A DNA stretch of 64,000 bases from Verrucomicrobiota bacterium (lineage in GTDB: Bacteria > Verrucomicrobiota > Verrucomicrobiia > Limisphaerales > JADLHS01): contig JAKQDQ010000178.1 in the NCBI GenBank assembly GCA_029573725.1, positions 467,929 through 531,928 of the forward strand. Direction: 5' to 3'. Both the position numbers and the translations under genes were made by a program. The notes under the pieces were generated by a model that saw nothing but the letters and a program-made list of their open reading frames with translations, had not been told where the DNA came from and ran no database searches. Positions 6,291 to 48,736 of the stretch are shown piece after piece (the first letter of the stretch is position 1; each line of letters begins with the position of its first letter).

Positions 6291-9200
6291 ATGAAACGAA
6301 TCAGTCCCAAACTCAACCGGTGCCTGGGCGTATGCCTCGGTGCGTGGTCCATGGCGGCAACCCTGCAAGCCCAACCCAGTATTCATGACATCTCGCCGAA
6401 CGGAAGCCGGCTGTTCCAGGCGGCCACCGAGTTGACTTTTGGCATCACGGCCAGTGGTGCCAACGTCAATCCCGAAGGGATCACCGTACGGCTCGTTTCG
6501 ACCAATACCGCCGGGCGGATCCAGGACGTCACGCTCACCTCGACCACCGGACTGACGGTGGGCGGCACCCCGGCGGAGCGTCTCGTCACCGCGCCGCTGA
6601 GTCTCAACGTGGTCGGCTATGCGGTGACGATTACGGCCACCGACACGGCCAGCAAAACGGCCACCAGCCAGGTCAATTTTGACACCTTGGCCCCGAGCGT
6701 CGTCATCGAGGCGGAGGACTTCAATTTTGGGAATGGTCAGTGGGTGCCCGAGCCGCAAACCAATGAATATCGCCGGGCGGTGCTGCTGACCCCCGCAACG
6801 CAAGGGGTGGATGTGCGTGACAATTACTTCGACGCCGGCGGGAGTCTGGGCAACCAGGCTTATCGCGATGCCGGGTTGTTCACCGAGCCGACTGCGGACA
6901 CTCCGCGGGCGCCGTACATCGGCACGGGCAAGACGGACTACAACATTGGCTGGTTTGATCCGGGCGACTGGGGCAACTACACCCGGTCCTACCCGGCGGG
7001 CACCTACTACGTGTATTATCGGGCGGCCAGCGATATTGGCGCCCCGAGTTCGGCCACGCTTTCCCTGGTGACGAGCGACCGCACCCAGCCGGGCCAGACC
7101 ACCACCGGGTTGGGCACCATGGAGTTTCCCAGTCGCGGCTGGCAGGTCTATGCCTACAGCGCGCTGCGGCGTCCCGACGGGAATCTGGCCACCGTGACCC
7201 TGGACGGCACGGAGCAGACGCTCCGCTTGACGGGGGTGGGCGCGCACAATGGCAATTTTCTGGCGTTGTTCCCGGTGGACACCGCCGCCCCAACCATCGA
7301 AGAGGTTTATCCCGATGGCGCCCACCTGATTCAACCCACCAACACGATGAGGTTCGTGGTGCGGTCCTCGAGCGCCACGGTTGACCCCGCAGGCATCAAG
7401 GTCACCCTGACCTACAAGACCACCTCGGGTCAGTCCGGAACGCGTCTCGTCACCTCCACCAACGGATTGACGGTCGGCGGCACCGGCGCGGAACGGACCG
7501 TGTCCCTGCCGTTGCAGACCAATGTTTACAGCTACCAGACCATGATCGAGGCGACCGATGTCAACGGGAAGGTCAGCGTGGCCAACTACAACTTCGGCAC
7601 CGCCGACCCGGTCTTCTCCTTCGAGGCGGAAGATTTTGACTACGATTACGGGCAGTTCATCAACAACGGAGCGATCAACGCCTACGGCTATGCGGCGGAA
7701 CTGGCGCCGGCCGTCGAGGGGGTGGACACCCACGAAGGCGATATTCTCAACGGCGGGACCGCCTATCGTGAGCCCGGTTTGCACACCGAAATCACGGCGG
7801 ACCGGCTCCGAACCCAGTATGCCGCTGCGAGTGAGCCGGATTACAACGTGGGCTGGCTCGATAACGGGGACTGGGGCAACTACACGCGCAACCTGCCCGC
7901 GGGCACCTTCAATGTGTACGTGCGCGCCGGCACCGGAAACGCCTCGCCCGGCGGAATCACGATGGCGGAAGTGACTGGCGGCGTCGGCACCATGGAGCAA
8001 ACCACGACCAATGTGGGCACGTTTGTCATTCCCCCGACGGGAAGTTGGACGGCTTTCACGTGGGTGCCGCTGAAGACGGCAAACGGCGCACTGGCCACGA
8101 TTGAAGGAGGGCGGCAGGTCACCCTGCGCATGACCACCACCGGCGGCCATAACGCGAATTTCTACGCGTTCTTCCCGGCGGATTTGAGCGTGCCGACCAT
8201 CACGGAGCTGCACCCCGACGGGACCCTGCTGATTGAGCCGACGAACACCATGTCCTTCAAAACGGAATCGGCCGGCTCCACCATCGCGCCGGAGGATATT
8301 TCCGTCACCTTGAGCTACCGGATGAGCAACGGGTTGACGGGCACCACCAATCTGACGGCGGGCGCCGGTTTGACCGTGGGCGGCTCGCCCGCCTCGCGGA
8401 CCGTGTCGTTGCCGCTGCGCACCGACATTCTGGAGTACCAGGCCACCATCCAGGTCGTCAGCGGCAACGGCAACAGCGTGGAAAAGGCCTTCCGGTTCGG
8501 CACCCTCCCGCCGGCTTATACGTTTGAAGCGGAGGATTTCAACTATAACTTCGGCCAGTTTATCAACAACCCGCCCCTCAATGCCTATGACCGCGCGGTG
8601 CTCCTGGATCTGCCGGTCGAGGGGGTGGATACACACGAGGAGGATCCCGCCGGAGGCGCCACCGTCTATCGCGATCCCGGCCTGCATACGGAACAAACAT
8701 TTGACCAGGCCCGGTCGCAGTACGTGAGCGCGGGGCTGCCCGACTACAACGTGGGCTGGTATGCGCCGGGCGATTGGGGCAACTACACCCGCAATCTGCC
8801 GGCGGGCAACTTTTACCTCTACGCCCGGGTGGCTACCGATTACGTGCCCACGCCTTCCACCGGCCTGGCCGTCGCCGAGGTGGTCGCCGGGGCCGACACC
8901 TATGACCAGACCCTCGCGCCGTTGGGCTCCGTTCTCATTCCGGCGACGGGGGGATGGCAGAGTTACATCTGGGTGCCGGTCCGGGATGCCTTTGGCAATC
9001 TGGTGGAGATTGAAGGAGGCCGTCAGGTCACCCTCCGCATGACGGCGACGGGCTTTTTGAATGCGAACTTTTACGCCTTCTACCCGTCCGATCCCAGCAT
9101 TCCCACCATCACGGAGGTGTATCCGAACGGAGCGGAACTGCAGCAAGGCACGAACAAGTTCAGTTTCAAGGTGGCTTCTTCCGCGGGCATTGATCAAGCC

Positions 9201-10160
9201 AACGTCCAGTTGAAAATTGATGGTCAGACGGTGTCCGGTCTGGTGTTCCAGGGCTCTCCCACGGCCTGGGCGGTGAATTATCCCAATCTGACCGCCAACA
9301 CCCTCCATACCGCCTCGATCACCGTCACCGCCAACAATGGCCTGACCCATACCGTCAATACCGCCTTCGACACCTTCGATCGCGAGGCCTTTACCGTGGA
9401 AGCAGAAGCCTTCAACATTTTCGGGGCCTTTTTTGACAATCCATCCCAGGCGGATTACTACCTGCAGGAAGCGGCGGTGGACATTGACTACTCGGGCACC
9501 GTCGCCAGCGGCCTTTACGACTACCGCAATTCCGGTCTGAACACCGAACATTGCTTCGATCTGGTGCGGCCCTGGCTCAATGACCCCAACGCCAATGGCG
9601 ACTACAACGTCGGCTGGTTTGACAGCGGTTTCTGGGGCAACTACACCCGCACCTACCCGGCCGGCCGCTACAACATCTACCTCCGGGCGGCCAATTTCAC
9701 CGGCACTCCAAGTTACGTGTATGCCGCGAAGGTCACCTCGGACCCGACGCAGTCCGGCCAAACCACCGCGGCGCTGGGCAGCTTTGAGATTCCCCCCACC
9801 GGCGGGGCGCAAAAATACACCTGGGCGGGATTGAAAGACAATGACGGCAAACTGGTGGCGGTGGAGTTCAACGGAGTGGCCACGTTGCGCTTGACCGCCG
9901 GAGGCGGCAACAACGTCAACTTCTTCATCCTGACACCGGCGCCCACGACCGTCACCCTCACGATCGCGCGTGATGTTGCAGGCGTCCGGGTCTCGTTTGC
10001 GACCGAGTCGGGCCGGACCTATCAGGTGGAGCGCAAGCAGAGCCTTGCCGACGCCATCTGGCAGCCGCTGGGCGCGCCGGTCAGCGGTGACGGCACCGTC
10101 AAGTCGGTGACCGATTCCACCGCCGCCGGCAGCGGGTTCTATCGGCTCCACATCCAGTGA
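6291..10160 (+). CDS. Secreted protein with four tandem Ig-like + CBM6/CBM35-like carbohydrate-binding modules
   Basis: Signal peptide MKRISPKLNRCLGVCLGAWSMAATLQAQP. Four modules of about 300 aa each. Each has an Ig-like segment (VYPDGA.L.QPTNT..F...GLTVGG..AERTVSLPL) followed by a CBM6-type signature (EAEDF ... YNVGW ... GDWGNYTR..PAG.Y.VY.RA). The EAE(D/A)F anchors are at nt 6708, 7623, 8526 and 9399. Confidence 0.9.
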   Translation: MKRISPKLNRCLGVCLGAWSMAATLQAQPSIHDISPNGSRLFQAATELTFGITASGANVNPEGITVRLVSTNTAGRIQDVTLTSTTGLTVGGTPAERLVTAPLSLNVVGYAVTITATDTASKTATSQVNFDTLAPSVVIEAEDFNFGNGQWVPEPQTNEYRRAVLLTPATQGVDVRDNYFDAGGSLGNQAYRDAGLFTEPTADTPRAPYIGTGKTDYNIGWFDPGDWGNYTRSYPAGTYYVYYRAASDIGAPSSATLSLVTSDRTQPGQTTTGLGTMEFPSRGWQVYAYSALRRPDGNLATVTLDGTEQTLRLTGVGAHNGNFLALFPVDTAAPTIEEVYPDGAHLIQPTNTMRFVVRSSSATVDPAGIKVTLTYKTTSGQSGTRLVTSTNGLTVGGTGAERTVSLPLQTNVYSYQTMIEATDVNGKVSVANYNFGTADPVFSFEAEDFDYDYGQFINNGAINAYGYAAELAPAVEGVDTHEGDILNGGTAYREPGLHTEITADRLRTQYAAASEPDYNVGWLDNGDWGNYTRNLPAGTFNVYVRAGTGNASPGGITMAEVTGGVGTMEQTTTNVGTFVIPPTGSWTAFTWVPLKTANGALATIEGGRQVTLRMTTTGGHNANFYAFFPADLSVPTITELHPDGTLLIEPTNTMSFKTESAGSTIAPEDISVTLSYRMSNGLTGTTNLTAGAGLTVGGSPASRTVSLPLRTDILEYQATIQVVSGNGNSVEKAFRFGTLPPAYTFEAEDFNYNFGQFINNPPLNAYDRAVLLDLPVEGVDTHEEDPAGGATVYRDPGLHTEQTFDQARSQYVSAGLPDYNVGWYAPGDWGNYTRNLPAGNFYLYARVATDYVPTPSTGLAVAEVVAGADTYDQTLAPLGSVLIPATGGWQSYIWVPVRDAFGNLVEIEGGRQVTLRMTATGFLNANFYAFYPSDPSIPTITEVYPNGAELQQGTNKFSFKVASSAGIDQANVQLKIDGQTVSGLVFQGSPTAWAVNYPNLTANTLHTASITVTANNGLTHTVNTAFDTFDREAFTVEAEAFNIFGAFFDNPSQADYYLQEAAVDIDYSGTVASGLYDYRNSGLNTEHCFDLVRPWLNDPNANGDYNVGWFDSGFWGNYTRTYPAGRYNIYLRAANFTGTPSYVYAAKVTSDPTQSGQTTAALGSFEIPPTGGAQKYTWAGLKDNDGKLVAVEFNGVATLRLTAGGGNNVNFFILTPAPTTVTLTIARDVAGVRVSFATESGRTYQVERKQSLADAIWQPLGAPVSGDGTVKSVTDSTAAGSGFYRLHIQ

Positions 10161-18336: not shown

Positions 18337-18375
18337 TCCCGCGGAACGGAATCGGAAAATGCGGGCCGCCCGCCC

Positions 18376-18600
18376 CCCTCAGCCCGGCGGATGGCCAGAG
18401 GCACAGTTGCGCGTGAGGAGACACAGCGGAACCCACCCTCTCCCCAGCGGATGGGGCGAGGGGCAAAGTCTCGTGACCGATTGGCGGGTGGCGTCTGGGC
18501 CGGCTTTGAGCGCCTGATGTATGGTGTTGCTACACCCCTCACCCGGCCTGGCGGCCACCCTCTCCCCAGCGGGTGGGGCGAGGGACGGAGGTGCGGGAGG
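18376..18600. repeat. Three copies of a GC-rich hairpin repeat (CCCTCTCCCC-N7-GGGG(A/C)GAGGG family)
   Basis: Degenerate copy at 18376-18402. Core hairpin at 18436-18462 (CCCTCTCCCC agcggat GGGGCGAGGG). Full copy at 18535-18600 (CCCCTCACCC ... CCCTCTCCCC agcgggt GGGGCGAGGG ACGG...). A fourth copy in the same plus-strand orientation lies inside the topoisomerase gene at 45950-46009. Confidence 0.7.
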
Positions 18601-20152: not shown

Positions 20153-20170
20153 TCTAATCGGTTTCTTTCA

Positions 20171-20201
20171 AGAGCCGCTCTTCGGAGCGGCTCTTTTTTT
20201 T
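20171..20201 (+). terminator. Rho-independent terminator
   Basis: AGAGCCGCTC (20171-20180), TTCG loop, GAGCGGCTCT (20185-20194), a perfect 10-bp stem. A run of T follows to 20201. It starts 19 nt after the PEP-CTERM stop. Confidence 0.85.
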
Positions 20202-21209
20202 GTGCCTTGAAGGGGCTCCGTTCCACCGCGTCGCAAACCATACGCAAACGGAAAGGCGCGGGAATCAAGGGCAAGGGAATGGGAAATGGCGGAGCATCGC
20301 CGGCGCGGACGGTGGTCGTTCGCGCCCTCGCGCGCGGCCTCGGATTCCGGGAGCTGCAACAGGTGGGACGCGTCACTCCGCGCGCGCCGTCGGCCCATGA
20401 GGGGCTGCGACGTGCCGGGGACGGCCCGCTCCATCCGTCCTCTGCGTTTCGGTTGCTCGGTGGTTCTTCCTTCGCCTGCTTCTGTGGTCTGGCCATTAAA
20501 CCGCCCGGCCACTTTGACGCTGAGGACAATTTCACGTTCCACAGAACTTTGAAGTTTCCTTGAAGACTTGCCCTGCAGTGGGATAATCGTACCGTGAAGT
20601 TGGCGGCGGATGATACGGGGCGGTTGACACGCCTGGAGTTATTTCGATCCACGGCCACGTTTGGCGTTCGCCGGCAACCGGATGGCGCGGTGCGCGGTGC
20701 TGAATTGGTGGAAAACGATATGGCTGTGGTTCAGCCGGTTCAGTCCGCCGACGGGCGGCTCGTTTCTCCAGTTGAAGTTAAGCGGGAAGTCATTCGGGCG
20801 GCATGGCGCGCAGATCGCGAGGCACGATGACGGTTTGCAGGGACAGTTCCGCAATTGTCGCTGTCTGGATTGGTCCGGAAATCCGGATGCGTCTGCATCG
20901 GGCACGCGAGGTAACGCGCACCCATGGCCTGGCCGGGGTTTTCCCGGCGGTTGCCGGAGGCCATTTAACGGTCCGGCCAGATGCCGGTGAAGCGGCGCGG
21001 CGACTGGCTCACGGCAAGGGCAGGCGCGGTGGCCGGGGGCATGATTGCCGGCACGCTGTCGCGACGGACAAGATCCAGGCGACAAAGCGGCTGGCGGTTG
21101 ATCACAGTGATTGCGATGGAATCAGCGCCATGAACATCGAGCAACTTGGTTGGTGACATTCGCCGTCGGATGTCCCTTCATTCAATCCGCAGATGAAACC
21201 TTTCGAACC

Positions 21210-45439: not shown

Positions 45440-45514
45440 CTCCTCTACCGGCACGACGAGCTCGCCCGTGATGTAATCCTTCCGCTCGGGAATGTTCTTG
45501 TCCGGGTGAGAGCC
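45440..45514 (-). pseudogene. Relic of a GyrB/ParE-type 3' end (about 25 codons)
   Basis: The reverse strand reads GSHPDKNIPERKDYITGELVVPVEE, versus the intact C-terminus FYMGKNTPERKDYIMDRLVVPVEE at 45734-45808. I count about 56 of 75 nt identical by hand alignment. The stop codon is lost and no upstream coding context remains. Confidence 0.45.
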
Positions 45515-45574
45515 TGATTCACAACTCCGAGTGGAGCTGTTGTCGGGCGAATGGTTGGATGGCGATCAACAATG

Positions 45575-45728
45575 TTTCCGCCACCCCTTCAGGGTGGAAA
45601 TGATTTCTTGGAACGCTCCCCGGGGTGGTCGCTGCGCTCCAACCCCGGGCTAATTTCCGCTGCCCCATTGGGGCAGATCAGTTCGGCTTCGCGGAACATC
45701 GTGGACGCACGGCAGGGCGTCCCTGCCG
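45575..45728. repeat. Cluster of four short GC hairpins downstream of the topoisomerase gene
   Basis: Four hairpins. 45575-45600: TTTCCgcCACCC cttca GGGTGGAAA. 45619-45649: CCCGGGG, 17 nt, CCCCGGG. 45660-45676: CTGCCCC att GGGGCAG. 45710-45728: CGGCAGGG cgt CCCTGCCG. The last ends 2 nt from the stop codon at 45731-45733. Confidence 0.55.
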
Positions 45729-45730
45729 GA

Positions 45731-47698
45731 TCACTCCTCCACCGGCACGACCAGCCTATCCATGATGTAATCTTTGCGCTCGGGCGTGTTCTTGCCCATG
45801 TAGAAGGTCAGGATCGGCGTGGACTCGGCGCGCGGGGCATATTCCACTTTGCTCAAGCGCATCTCCTTGCCGATGAATTGCGCAAACTCCTTCGGGCTGA
45901 TTTCGCCGAGGCCTTTGAAACGCGTGATTTCGATCTTGCGTTTGAGTTGCCCCTCTCCCGGCTGCGCCACCCTCTCCCCATCCGATGGGGAGAGGGACGG
46001 GGTGAGGGGTTTCCCACCGAGTTCGGTCACCGCTTTGTCGCGTTCGGCTTCGCTGTAGCAGTAAATCGTTTTCTCTTTGTTACGCACGCGGAACAGCGGC
46101 GTCTCCAGCACATACACGTGCCCGTCGTGGACCAGTTGCTCGAAGAAGCGGAAGAAGTACGTGATCATCAGGTTGCGGATGTGCATGCCGTCCACGTCCG
46201 CGTCGGTGGCAAGGATGACCTTCTCGTACCGCAAGCCCTCGGTGTTGTCCTCGACATTGAGCGCCTGCATGAGGTTGTACATCTCGTCGTTCTTGTACAT
46301 CACGTCGCGCTTGAGATCCCAGACATTGAGCGGCTTGCCCTTGAGCACGAACACGGCCTGATTGTTCACGTCGCGGCAGCTCGTGATCGAGCCGGCGGCG
46401 GACTGGCCTTCGCAGATGAAGACCATCGTGCCTTTGCCCTTTTCCTTCTTTTTGTCGAAATGATTCTTGCAGTCCTTCAACTGCGGGATGCGCAACGTGA
46501 TCGCCTTGGCGCGTTCGCGCGCGAGCTTCTTCACGTTCTGCAATTCCTTCCGCAACTCCTGCGTGTCCTTCACCTTCGCGACGATCGTCTCGGCGATCTG
46601 CTTGTTGCGCTGGAAGAAATGCAACAACTCCTCGCGCACGTTGTTGACGAGTTCGGTGCGGATTTCCGTGTTGCCCAATTTGTTCTTCGTCTGCGACTCA
46701 AACATCGGGTCTTTGAGACGAATCGCCACCGCGCCAACCATCGCCTCGCGCACGTCGTCGCCCTCGAACTTGCCGCCGCAATACTCATTTACTGCCTTGA
46801 GCAAACCTTCGCGAAACGCGCTCAAATGCGTGCCGCCGTCGCTGGTGTATTGGCCGTTGACGAAGGAATAGAACGTCTCGCCGTAGCGTGAATTGCTGTG
46901 CGTGAAGCAGAACTCCAGCGTCTTGCTCGCGTAATGGAGCGGAGAATACAACGGCTCGCTGCCGTCCCCCGACAAATCTTCCATCACCAGGTCCATCAGG
47001 CCGTGGCGGGATTGGAAAATCTTTGGACTATCCTCGGTAGGGACATCGCGCTGCGATGTCCGGTCGGCGCAGCGCGCCGACCCTACCATATTCAGAATCA
47101 GCTTCAGCCCCGTGTTCAGGTAACTGTAATGCCGCAGCCGCTTTTCGACGTGCTCGGGCTTGAACTCCGTTTCCTTGAAGATCTCCGGATCCGGCTCGAA
47201 TTCGATGTAGGTTCCGTTCGGTTCCTTCGTTTTGCCCGAGTCCTCCTTCTTCAGTTTGCCGGTCTTGAATTGCGCCTCGGCATATTCACCATCGCGATGG
47301 CTGCGCACGATGAAGTTCTTGGACAGCGCATTCACCGCCTTGGTGCCGACGCCATTCAAGCCGACGCTGAACTGGAACACGTCGTCATTGTACTTCGCGC
47401 CGGTGTTGATTTTGGAAACGCAGTCCACGACCTTGCCGAGCGGGATGCCGCGGCCGTAATCGCGCACGCAGACGTGCGTGCCGTCAATGGTGATCTCCAC
47501 CTCCTTGCCGTGGCCCATGATGTATTCGTCAATGGCGTTGTCCACGACCTCCTTGAGCAGGATGTAGCAGCCGTCGTCGTAATGGTTGCCATTGCCGATG
47601 CGCCCGATGTACATGCCGGTGCGCAGCCGGATGTGCTCCAGCGAACTCAGCGTCTTGATCTTGCTCTCGTCGTAGTTGTGCTTTGGTTTTTCAGCCAT
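45731..47698 (-). CDS. Type IIA DNA topoisomerase ATPase subunit B (GyrB/ParE family) carrying two in-frame repeat insertions
   Basis: ATG 47698 (MAEKPKHNYDESKIKTLSSLEHIRLRTGMYIG) within track ORF 45731-47938. GHKL motifs: EVVDNAIDE, DYGRGIP. Toprim motifs: ICEGQSAAGS, ILATDADVDGMHIRNL. Tail motif: RFKGLGE. The 80-codon N-terminal extension in the track is translated REP sequence. Confidence 0.9.
   Translation of the reverse strand: MAEKPKHNYDESKIKTLSSLEHIRLRTGMYIGRIGNGNHYDDGCYILLKEVVDNAIDEYIMGHGKEVEITIDGTHVCVRDYGRGIPLGKVVDCVSKINTGAKYNDDVFQFSVGLNGVGTKAVNALSKNFIVRSHRDGEYAEAQFKTGKLKKEDSGKTKEPNGTYIEFEPDPEIFKETEFKPEHVEKRLRHYSYLNTGLKLILNMVGSARCADRTSQRDVPTEDSPKIFQSRHGLMDLVMEDLSGDGSEPLYSPLHYASKTLEFCFTHSNSRYGETFYSFVNGQYTSDGGTHLSAFREGLLKAVNEYCGGKFEGDDVREAMVGAVAIRLKDPMFESQTKNKLGNTEIRTELVNNVREELLHFFQRNKQIAETIVAKVKDTQELRKELQNVKKLARERAKAITLRIPQLKDCKNHFDKKKEKGKGTMVFICEGQSAAGSITSCRDVNNQAVFVLKGKPLNVWDLKRDVMYKNDEMYNLMQALNVEDNTEGLRYEKVILATDADVDGMHIRNLMITYFFRFFEQLVHDGHVYVLETPLFRVRNKEKTIYCYSEAERDKAVTELGGKPLTPSLSPSDGERVAQPGEGQLKRKIEITRFKGLGEISPKEFAQFIGKEMRLSKVEYAPRAESTPILTFYMGKNTPERKDYIMDRLVVPVEE
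45950..46009. repeat. 60-bp nested palindrome (GC-hairpin family) inside the topoisomerase CDS
   Basis: CCCCTCTCCC ggctgcgcca CCCTCTCCCC atccgat GGGGAGAGGG acg GGGTGAGGGG. It is exactly 20 codons, translated on the minus strand as PLTPSLSPSDGERVAQPGEG. It has the same family and orientation as 18535-18600. Confidence 0.75.
47036..47087. repeat. 52-bp cloverleaf-like palindromic element inside the topoisomerase CDS
   Basis: Outer stem GGTAGGG/CCCTACC encloses two perfect 9-bp hairpins: GGACATCGC gct GCGATGTCC (47041-47061) and GGTCGGCGC agc GCGCCGACC (47062-47082). Positions 47036-47086 are 17 in-frame codons reading VGSARCADRTSQRDVPT. Confidence 0.75.
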
Positions 47699-47783: not shown

Positions 47784-47884
47784 AAAGCGGCGGTAAACAC
47801 GCCGCAGTCCAGACGCTTCGCGCGGTTTGGAGACGCCCGGTGGTCGCGCCAGCGTCTGGACTGCGGTGGCTTTAGCACCGCTTT
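47784..47884. repeat. REPIN-like doublet (two inverted REP units)
   Basis: Arm 47784-47816 is AAAGCGGCGgtaaacaCGCCGCAGTCCAGACGC. Arm 47852-47884 is GCGTCTGGACTGCGGTGgctttagCACCGCTTT. The spacer contains CGGTTTGGAGACGCCCG. Confidence 0.8.
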
Positions 47885-47947
47885 TACTACGAACCGCCAA
47901 GACGCTTTCACCTTTTCCAAACCTCCCGCCTCCGGCATTTTCCCGCC

Positions 47948-48577
47948 ATGACCGCCGACCCGCAGCCACCTAATTCTGAGCCTGCGGCGCCAAGCACGTT
48001 CAAACTTCCATCAGTTCACTTGGTTGATCTCAAGTCTCAACTACCGCCTAAGGATTGGCCACATGCGCCGATTCATCGGCTGGCCGAGAATGCCGTATAT
48101 TTCGTCACCGCCAGCACGTTGCACAAACAACACCTGTTTGATACGCACGCAAAGCGTGATTTGTTGGAACGACTGCTCCTCTCGTTCGCCAAGTGTGACG
48201 GTTGGCAACTGGAAGCGTGGGCGGTGTTTGCCAATCATTATCACATCGTCGCGCGGGGCCGGCACGATTCGCGGAATCTCGGAGATATGCTCCACGATGT
48301 GCATGGAGTCTCCGCCCGTGAACTGAACAAGCTGGACGGTGTTTCCGGCAGAAACGTGTGGTTCAATTTTTGGGATGCCAAACTGACCATCCAACATAGC
48401 TATCTGGCGCGGCTCAACTACGTCCATCAAAACGCGGTGAAGCACAAACTTGTCCCGGTGGCGAACCAATATCCGTGGTGTTCGGCGGCGTGGTTTGAGC
48501 AGACGGCTTCGCCGGCACAGGTGAAGACGATTTACGGTTTCAAGATTGATCGGGTGAAGGTGGAGGATGACTTCTGA
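47948..48577 (+). CDS. IS200/IS605-like Y1 transposase of the RAYT type
   Basis: HUH motif in FANHYHIVARG. Catalytic-Tyr region LARLNYVHQNAVKHKLVPVANQYPWCSAAWF, matching the Y-x-H-x-N-P/A-V-K pattern of REP-associated tyrosine transposases. Confidence 0.85.
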   Translation: MTADPQPPNSEPAAPSTFKLPSVHLVDLKSQLPPKDWPHAPIHRLAENAVYFVTASTLHKQHLFDTHAKRDLLERLLLSFAKCDGWQLEAWAVFANHYHIVARGRHDSRNLGDMLHDVHGVSARELNKLDGVSGRNVWFNFWDAKLTIQHSYLARLNYVHQNAVKHKLVPVANQYPWCSAAWFEQTASPAQVKTIYGFKIDRVKVEDDF

Positions 48578-48587
48578 AGCGTGGGAG

Positions 48588-48685
48588 AGCGGTGCTAAAG
48601 CCACCGCACTCCAGACGCTCCGGCGGTTTGGAGATGCCCGACATTCGCGTCAGCGTTTGGACTGCGGTGGCTTTAGCACCGCTTT
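48588..48685. repeat. REPIN-like doublet (two inverted REP units)
   Basis: Arm 48588-48619 is AGCGGTGctaaagcCACCGCACTCCAGACGCT. Arm 48652-48684 is AGCGTTTGGACTGCGGTGgctttagCACCGCTT. The spacer contains CGGTTTGGAGATGCCCG. Confidence 0.8.
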
Positions 48686-48736
48686 TGTTTGCCAACCTGA
48701 CTCCCGCCAAAAAACTTCGATCTTCCTACTTCAACC

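Follow-up and report, generated by a model that had tools for sequence, protein, structure and literature searches.

Why should an intact gene for a GyrB/ParE-type topoisomerase carry two strongly palindromic DNA elements that are read through as protein? The question is raised by a stretch of 64,000 nucleotides from a Verrucomicrobiota bacterium (contig JAKQDQ010000178.1; "the window" throughout), in which the original prediction, made from the letters alone, placed two elements with nested dyad symmetry inside the topoisomerase gene, regarded them as insertions of dispersed repeats tolerated in loops of the enzyme, and allowed for a role of the hairpins in the mRNA. We compared the gene with its orthologues and followed both elements through other genomes, and we conclude that they are very probably selfish insertions of the repetitive extragenic palindromic (REP) type, of which selection has spared only those that are in frame, free of stops and in permissive loops. 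The features on which this conclusion depends are the following.

45731-47698, minus strand: intact gene of 655 codons for the B subunit of a type IIA topoisomerase (open reading frame with translation, Pfam domains)
47036-47087, minus strand: element i, in which two GTAG-tagged REP hairpins form an inverted heterodimer without spacer; its translation at site 1 is (M)VGSARCADRTSQRDVPT
47062-47086, minus (coding) strand: REP unit a of element i, GTAGGG-TCGG-CGCGCTGCG-CCGA-CC, its tag beginning at 47086
47037-47061, plus strand: REP unit b of element i, GTAGGG-ACAT-CGCGCTGCG-ATGT-CC, its tag beginning at 47037
45950-46009, minus strand: element ii, a nested palindrome, its inner hairpin enclosed by outer arms CCCCTCACCCC/GGGAGAGGGG (symmetry search, fold)
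45970-45996, no strand assigned: inner perfect palindrome of element ii with 13-nt arms, CCCTCTCCCCATC-N-GATGGGGAGAGGG
45932-46006, minus strand: insertion of 75 nt, or 25 codons, at site 2, LTPSLSPSDGERVAQPGEGQLKRKI (DNA alignment with the closest orthologues)
18533-18600, plus strand: intergenic copy of element ii with outer and inner arms (inner hairpin 18554-18588, 89%), in the same orientation as the gene copy
18432-18466, plus strand: second intergenic copy, inner hairpin of element ii (86%)
18372-18406, plus strand: third, degenerate copy of the element ii hairpin (71%)
Insert-spanning stretches of the translation: LILNMVGSAR... at site 1 and ...GEGQLKRKIEITR at site 2

The topoisomerase frame is free of stop codons throughout 45731-47698 on the minus strand, and its product begins MAEKPKHNY; the longer frame up to 47938 is a mere upstream extension, whose start we dismissed because MAEK is the start in all orthologues. 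Four Pfam domains, HATPase_c (PF02518), DNA_gyraseB (PF00204), Toprim (PF01751) and DNA_gyraseB_C (PF00986), follow one another in the canonical order of GHKL ATPase, transducer, Toprim and C-terminal tail, and the predicted intact 655-codon GyrB/ParE-type frame is confirmed. Full-length matches to the NCBIfam models TIGR01059 gyrB (399.8 against a cut-off of 882) and TIGR01055 parE (309.8 against 723) stayed below the equivalog thresholds of both, the top relatives of solved structure were GyrB and ParE chains, and the label topoisomerase (topo) IV subunit B rests on names in public sources (also "toprim protein"; Verrucomicrobiota metagenome-assembled genome, MAG). A 655-residue protein 100% identical to this one (P0001) is recorded on 7 contigs from four sources (NCBI, JGI, Logan and ENA), which led us to reject an assembly artefact. 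Comparison with four orthologues gave ratios of nonsynonymous to synonymous substitution (dN/dS) of 0.04-0.08 at dS of 0.42-0.65, values that mark strong purifying selection on the gene whether or not a lineage carries the inserts; with the frame intact, these ratios also led us to reject a pseudogene. An intein or mini-intein was rejected as well, the inserts being 15-25 residues long against the at least about 130 that are needed, and Pfam revealing no intein domain.

Both predicted dyad symmetries were recovered at 47036-47087 and 45950-46009, with two perfect 9-bp hairpins in element i and 13-nt inner arms in element ii. Three of the eight perfect hairpins of at least 9 bp in the window fall within this 2-kb gene, and the chance expectation for the pattern of either element in the window is ~0. 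In element i, outer arms GGTAGGG and CCCTACC enclose the two hairpins, which have 3-nt loops (47041-47061 and 47062-47082), and the two units of 25 nt each are inverted with their GTAG tags outward and with zero spacer between them; its RNA fold of -39.3 kcal/mol corresponds to a z score of -5.7, and 0 of 200 shuffles folded equally well. The GTRG/GTAG tag, a G+C-rich stem-loop of 20-40 bp with a stem of 5-13 bp, the inverted dimer and, for the family as a whole, many dispersed copies with complementary stem changes are hallmarks of REPs that are all found here, and on these characters element i is a GTAG-tagged REP dimer; in another respect, an extragenic location, the window copy departs from the class, as it lies in coding sequence. 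The original prediction had seen a palindromic dispersed insert correctly without recognizing either this identity or its precedent in the phylum. It had also placed exactly 17 codons of insert directly after LILN; the 17 REP-encoded residues are indeed there, but a Met codon intervenes between LILN and the first of them, and relative to the usual loop of 8 residues the protein gains a net 15.

Element ii lacks a GTAG tag and is a nested palindrome of G/C tracts with a fold z score of -2.2 to -3.1; judged from its sequence, it is a repeat of a family different from that of element i. An inner CCCTCTCCCC-loop-GGGGAGAGGG hairpin within CCCCTCACCC/GGGTGAGGGG arms recurs in several copies, and alignment bore out the proposal that the gene copy belongs to the same family as those at 18.4-18.6 kb, the same orientation being shown for the 18.55-kb copy. 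Further relatives lie at five loci (L157, L200, L034, L056 and L027) among ~1.9 Mb of other Verrucomicrobiota loci, the one in L027 directly 3' of the stop codon of the orthologous gene. We found no published name for the family. Instead of the predicted contribution of exactly 20 codons, the insertion measures 25 codons against the closest orthologues (L201/P0002, L203/P0004, L202, L052 and L001), with a placement that is ambiguous by a few nucleotides; the Pro codon preceding EITRF now reads ATC in the window allele. There is no clear target-site duplication at site 2, where GGAAACCC and GCAAGATC, and ELGGKP and QLKRKI, are only ~50% alike.

We drew orthologues of 82-100% identity from a collection of 5.8 billion proteins and aligned 120 of them with MAFFT. 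Their commonest lengths were 615 and 614 residues. Site 1 was empty in 83 of the 120, leaving a loop of 2-8 residues after LNTGLKLIL(N/K), and site 2 was empty in 104, with just KP between ELGG and EITRFKGLGE; the excess of the window protein over the common length is accounted for in full (655 - 615 = 40 = 15 at site 1 plus 25 at site 2). The closest relative (P0002, from L201; 91.8% nucleotide identity) carried an identical element i and an empty site 2, and another (P0004, from L203; 91.3%) was empty at both. A search of 50%-identity representatives yielded mainly fragments and distant homologues, in which relatives of 44-54% identity also had short loops at both sites. The alignment thus showed, as had been predicted, that both segments are lineage-specific insertions, and the repeat searches place them in families present elsewhere. 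One 711-residue homologue (P0122, 54% identical) has a segment of ~75 residues within its GHKL domain that contains the REP-like FSPVSPGAAQQGAEQHRDGARPT, and this looks like a third, REP-derived insertion site in the family.

The family of element i was traced by scanning one genome per GTDB species with GTAGGGNNNNCGCGCTGCGNNNNCC (GTAGGGN4CGCGCTGCGN4CC). At least 120 stretches matched, nearly all of them in Verrucomicrobiota MAGs (Verrucomicrobiae, Chthoniobacterales, Udaeobacter and "Spartobacteria"). Among the matches listed, the four variable stem positions were complementary in 142 of 178 units, in at least 10 stem variants, from which it follows that the hairpin is required; the TCGG/CCGA stem of unit a occurred 12 times in these 178 units and the ACAT/ATGT stem of unit b 20 times. 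The same listed matches included 15 dimers built like element i with zero spacer and 5 with a spacer of 2 nt, all of them heterodimers with G...C flanks, as in element i. Closer to the gene, loci L075 and L076 each have an exact intergenic copy of unit b 190 nt upstream of the orthologue, and a compensated variant of unit b lies just past the orthologue's stop codon in a third metagenome locus. Around the intergenic REP copies we found nothing shared 5' of the tag beyond a single G, that is, no conserved target.

The family is mostly intergenic, yet 17 of 131 clusters among the matches listed, in other MAGs, fall within long open frames. The dimer lies in frame inside LeuRS (at the same position in two MAGs), IlvD, HemA, RibD and a CofH/MqnC radical-SAM protein, hosts confirmed by Pfam, where it reads VGSSRCDDRTAQRAVPT. 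All in-frame copies read as the hydrophilic VGS.RC.DRT.QR.VPT, as in the topoisomerase, although a second frame is also free of stops, a pattern consistent with a preference for the hydrophilic reading frame of the dimer. The leucyl-tRNA synthetase of L162 contains two different REP-like inserts in frame, NVGQASRLSQ..DGDRRDACPA and AGSSRCDDRTPQRGVPT, the latter placed just as it is in the L098 LeuRS.

When we examined the insertions across the whole orthologue alignment, every internal insertion of at least 10 residues was located at site 1 or site 2. The insert peptides belong to at least 12 unrelated families at site 1 and to 4 at site 2.

Site 1, examples of families: MVGSARCADRTSQRDVPT; WEGRVPPRPKSDGDGVEAVPPSN; MVGTSCGSSGPRGSAALP; WKNVGVQASACSGEAGDTLKREL
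Site 1, further families: W.GGARHSVRA..GAQGTARPT; WKGRTGVAPVS..DRRDACPT; WGSGTGVPPV..HGQDARAT
Site 2, families: element ii; KPACVAEA..TSARRRP; QRAAGVPP..PEARLRKI; GSGTGVSPVSS..HRQDARATRKI

On a neighbor-joining tree, Fitch parsimony required 22-28 changes for site 1 and 10 for site 2; because that tree is shallow and noisy, the family count is the safer lower bound on independent events. DNA was available for 16 filled sites, and 13 of these folded at z scores of -2.2 or lower, eleven of them at -4.3 to -7.4. Ends of the form GGTAG...CTAC were present in at least 10 of the 16, L205 holding another spacer-less dimer, and one family (GTAGTGGCACAGGCGTC...) was present in L009 at site 1 and in L020 and L025 at site 2. 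The insertion junctions varied by 3-7 nt among families at both sites, which argues against a single precise integration point. In site 2 of L048 and in both sites of L207 the palindromy was largely gone (z = +0.2, +1.3 and -1.5) and the peptide was kept, and the insert of P0113 resembled a shortened SSGPRG insert. The inserts therefore decay to ordinary loop sequence or are partly deleted.

Occupancy went together with changes in the residues alongside the insert. All 37 filled site-1 alleles start the loop with W, M or Y; of the 83 empty ones, 7 start it with M and none with W or Y. EITRF is preceded by I, L or V in 9 of the 16 site-2 alleles that are filled and by L in 2 of the 104 that are empty (both counts ignore phylogeny). 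These residues are host encoded, for between genes the copies of these REP families have only the G in common 5' of the tag, and we read the changes as compensation around a tolerated burden or as pre-adaptation.

Displaced 3' relics of the gene in L201 (13442-13924) and L020 (near 16980) bear a GTAGTGG...-type REP at site 2. The live L201 gene, unlike the relic, is empty at that site, and integration of an islet can therefore swap site-2 occupancy. Two REP families known from site 1 of orthologues also have degenerate copies in the window, GGGCTCCGTTCCACCGCGTCGC at 20213 (RVPPRPKS type) and GTGGGACGCGTCACTCCGCGCGCGCC at 20363 (GARHSVRA type); both, in the region 20170-20390, follow a terminator-like hairpin at 20170-20195.

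Where do the two sites lie in the protein? Site 1 is at the junction of the GHKL and transducer domains, and it aligned within the long segment specific to M. tuberculosis GyrB (8s7k, 6gau) that leads from the last GHKL strand to the transducer. Site 2 is at the junction of the Toprim domain and the C-terminal tail; full-length alignments with E. coli GyrB ended at query residue 554, eight residues ahead of it, and in E. coli GyrB the inserted domain of 170 residues sits just before the QRYKGLGE strand. Judged by alignment with solved chains, the GyrB/ParE fold thus appears to tolerate insertions at both sites, and the coincidence with the lineage-specific insert positions of GyrB bears out the suggestion that these are insertions tolerated in loops of a conserved enzyme.

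Taken together, these results suggest the following course of events. Two unrelated, non-autonomous palindromic repeats would have inserted into a functional gene for a topo IV-type B subunit, and both would be translated. REPs as a class are thought to be mobilized as single-stranded hairpins by REP-associated tyrosine (HUH/Y1) transposases (RAYTs). Insertion would be essentially selfish and strike many places, and purifying selection would retain only those events that are in frame, free of stops and in permissive loops, here presumably the GHKL/transducer junction and the loop ahead of the (E/Q)I(T/Q)R(F/Y)KGLGE strand. Such inserts would remain as hydrophilic, probably disordered loop extensions, and over time would lose their palindromy to become ordinary loop sequence or be partly deleted.

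Several observations weigh against this account. Pattern scans and scans for GTAG-tagged hairpins found no second copy of element i in the 64-kb window, so that its repeated nature is shown in other genomes. The final 15-18 nt of the site-2 insertion (QLKRKI) lie outside the repeat consensus. An AlphaFold2 model from an alignment of 35 sequences rendered both inserts as low-confidence coil between conserved secondary-structure elements and was too poor to place the loops (mean predicted local distance difference test [pLDDT] 52.9, predicted template modeling score [pTM] 0.39). The flanking changes that accompany occupancy are hints that the inserts are not simply neutral, and at least 16 independent families crowd onto exactly two sites, a pattern that may reflect targeting at the DNA level and not selection alone. 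Finally, no transposase was linked to either element; a RAYT-like gene does lie next to the topoisomerase gene, but its flanking palindromes are different ones.

47948-48577, plus strand: RAYT-like open reading frame of 209 residues, 250 nt upstream of the topoisomerase gene

This frame scored 73.8 bits (E = 1.3e-20) against the NCBIfam model REP_Tyr_transpos (REP-associated tyrosine transposase), just short of the cut-off of 80, and matched Pfam Y1_Tnp with E = 0.018 only, so that it is missed at the Pfam default threshold. It is flanked by palindromes of ~100 nt at 47784-47885 and 48588-48686, with 32-nt arms (AGCGTCTGGACTGCGGTGGCTTTAGCACCGCT) and a 32-nt loop. Because these are unrelated to elements i and ii, the arrangement is that of a RAYT flanked by terminal inverted repeats.

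Among the alternatives to selfish insertion filtered by selection, the one that survives best is targeting at the DNA level, in which an occupied site, or a local sequence or structure exposed as single strand, draws further REP insertion or replacement; the loops would then be the intragenic equivalent of a cluster of bacterial interspersed mosaic elements (BIMEs). The number of families at each site within a clade of 82-100% identity speaks for it, as do the counts of Fitch changes and the presence of the GTAGTGGCACAGGCGTC... family at both sites. Furthermore, the outer GGTAGGG...CCCTACC-GAGGAT junction is common to different families (in the window allele, WIN, and in L018), and empty alleles that read M-x-G-x-x (MNGEA, MAGQP), together with the shortened P0113, may be footprints of earlier occupancy. 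However, from one family to another the junctions shift by 3-7 nt at both sites, the flanks of the intergenic copies hold no conserved target beyond the single G, and, because the two sites match positions at which the comparison with solved GyrB indicates lineage-specific inserts, a selection filter acting on random in-frame hits suffices without targeting. We consider such targeting unlikely, though not to be neglected. A stronger form, to which we assign only a slim chance, is that the loops are true REP traps, in which a site once entered is preferentially retargeted or overwritten by other GTAG-ended REP families while the protein adapts around it (W, M or Y at the start of the site-1 loop; Pro to Ile, Leu or Val before EITRF). 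If it were true, REP turnover would time and again produce variation in loop length in an essential enzyme, with a possible link to the affinity of type II topoisomerases for REP DNA.

The flanking substitutions bear also on the idea that the loops have been co-opted as adaptive parts of the protein, for instance to modulate communication between ATPase and transducer or contacts with partners, as lineage-specific GyrB inserts do. Their convergence with occupancy at both sites would fit co-option, and so would the use of the hydrophilic frame by all in-frame copies of the element i family and the retention of decayed inserts as peptide. Against this, the insert peptides are unrelated between families, the sites are filled patchily among near-identical orthologues, compensation for a tolerated burden would explain the flanking changes equally well, and the AlphaFold2 model is of low confidence. 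On balance we think co-option improbable.

Could the hairpins instead have been kept for a role as nucleic acid, in pausing of ribosomes or RNA polymerase at domain boundaries, in mRNA stability, or as a site bound or cleaved by type II topoisomerases for supercoiling-dependent autoregulation of the topoisomerase gene? The position of the inserts at domain junctions would suit such a role, and E. coli REPs have been reported as targets of gyrase (PMC3733652, discussion). Element i was identical at 52 of 52 positions between WIN and P0002 despite a dS of 0.42, but 6% of the 52-nt windows in that alignment were also 100% identical; the identity is therefore not significant, and extra conservation of the element is suggestive at best. 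Its stems differ between alleles by compensatory changes (GGTCGGCGC/GCGCCGACC in WIN against GGTCGTCGC/GCGACGACC in L052; an A-to-G change paired with a T-to-C change, plus a G.T wobble, in P0007), yet such differences can arise equally from independent insertion of family variants and may well have done so here, rather than by selection in place. A scan for terminators and promoters flagged neither element, most orthologues have no hairpin at either site, the L048 and L207 inserts persist as peptide without palindromy, and the same REP dimer is present in unrelated enzymes. The role at the mRNA level that had been suggested thus found no support, the hairpins being not terminator-like, absent from most orthologues and lost from the older inserts, and we regard a nucleic-acid function of any of these kinds as very doubtful. 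That the segments are ancestral and were lost elsewhere, or are artefacts of assembly, we give practically no credence, as loops at both sites are short in the wider family, the repeat families to which these palindromic DNA inserts belong have intergenic copies, and seven contigs record the same protein.

Other features lie in the immediate surroundings of the gene. In 12 of 89 loci (the window, L003, L004, L008, L009, L010, L016, L020, L023, L042, L201 and L203), the 3' end of the topoisomerase gene, comprising its last 20-45 codons, is repeated directly once or twice, 0.3-5.4 kb downstream; the window copy at 45440-45503 is 81% identical to 45734-45797 and lies 294 nt downstream of it. Cargo enclosed by the copies, where present, resembles defence or toxin genes (Peptidase_M78, DUF4411 and Mrr in L201; a single open reading frame in L009), and no integrase was seen at the loci with such repeats. 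From this arrangement the 3' end of the gene looks like an integration hot spot, each islet supplying a replacement 3' end. The 230 nt from the topoisomerase stop codon to the relic 3' end in the window (45504-45730) hold no open reading frame and four separate hairpins (ccggcaggg/ccctgccg, ctgcccc/ggggcag, ccccgggg...ccccgggg and ccaccc/gggtgg), and may have been left behind by an islet or form another repeat cluster. Farther away, at 6861-9714, repeats with a period of ~903 nt occur in 3-4 copies of 66-75% identity, presumably within a repetitive protein-coding gene.

The locus is a clear case of translated selfish palindromic repeats in a DNA topoisomerase of essential type, and it extends the phenomenon from one cultured verrucomicrobium to many uncultured ones. 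Dozens of natural alleles that differ only in the repeat occupancy of two loops mark the insertion-tolerant positions of GyrB/ParE. The same alleles form a natural series from fresh palindrome to decayed loop, a resource for following the conversion of repeats into protein sequence, and they are a test bed for distinguishing targeted from selection-filtered REP insertion. They also carry a warning for annotation, in that length variation of 15-60 residues in core genes of the phylum is often REP derived.

How do these elements compare with systems already described? Di Nocera, De Gregorio and Rocco (2013, BMC Genomics 14:522, PMC3733652) defined the GTAG- and CGTC-tagged REP superfamilies, reported GTAG repeats in the Planctomycetes-Verrucomicrobia-Chlamydiae (PVC) superphylum, and found intragenic REPs, a documented minority of the family type, to be most numerous in the verrucomicrobium Opitutus terrae, for which their Additional file 3 gives 70 intragenic GTAG REPs with peptides that include GTGVPPV and HGRDARAT. 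More than half of their intragenic inserts are dimers encoding 20-30 residues, some with 1-2 bp between partners, and in Xanthomonas recB different REPs lie at about the same site (PMC3733652). The repeats described here resemble those of O. terrae in phylum, in GTAG tag, in stems of 6-9 bp and in inverted dimers 0-2 bp apart, as well as in forming in-frame segments of 15-30 residues inside known enzymes, often proteins of DNA metabolism; the O. terrae GTAG-19 peptides GTGVPPV and HGRDARAT even recur in the orthologue inserts (PMC3733652). They differ from them in that the element i stem-loop, GTAGGG-N4-CGCGCTGCG-N4-CC, is unmatched among the families of PMC3733652, whose Additional file 3 holds no peptide of the VGS.RC.DRT type and lists no gyrase or topoisomerase gene.

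The in-frame repeats of the topoisomerase gene work like the Rickettsia palindromic elements (RPEs), but they are not RPEs, from which GTAG tag, length of 50-60 nt and host phylum all set them apart. The general principle of palindromes inserted in frame reportedly goes back to the account of RPEs by Ogata and colleagues in Science in 2000, to which PMC3733652 refers. RPEs too are selfish palindromes in frame, in essential genes among others, tolerated as surface-exposed segments in hosts that stay functional; unlike the present repeats, RPE-1 is about 100-150 bp long, RPE-4 and RPE-6 are CGTC tagged, and the elements are alphaproteobacterial and unrelated in sequence. RPEs are not known to have a dedicated transposase.

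Systems of REP doublets forming hairpins (REPINs) and RAYTs are said to have been set out by Bertels and Rainey in 2011. Element i, as an inverted doublet of GTAG-tagged REPs, is built like the repeats of REPIN/RAYT systems (Nunvar 2010, PMC2817692; PMC8266576), and RAYT/TnpA-REP enzymes process single-stranded REPs in vitro (Corneloup 2021, PMC8266576). It is unlike REPINs in location, these being overwhelmingly extragenic by definition and in practice. MITEs (miniature inverted-repeat transposable elements) that insert in frame are likewise small and non-autonomous and able to add peptide segments, according to a review (PMC10969869), but they have terminal inverted repeats derived from insertion sequences together with target-site duplications, whereas our site alignments hold no clear duplication. 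The inserts of GyrB (~35 residues in M. tuberculosis, Schoeffler et al. 2010; the 170-residue domain in E. coli) appear to occupy the same positions in the fold; those are fixed, folded or functional segments of protein, whereas the ones described here are recent, polymorphic, palindromic DNA repeats. In-frame REPs in Verrucomicrobiota were already known (PMC3733652). What is new is the topoisomerase as host gene, the REP family of element i, the presence of two unrelated repeat types in one gene and, above all, though only modestly new, and without counterpart in the descriptions of PMC3733652, a hot spot of two sites and many families that extends across a whole clade.

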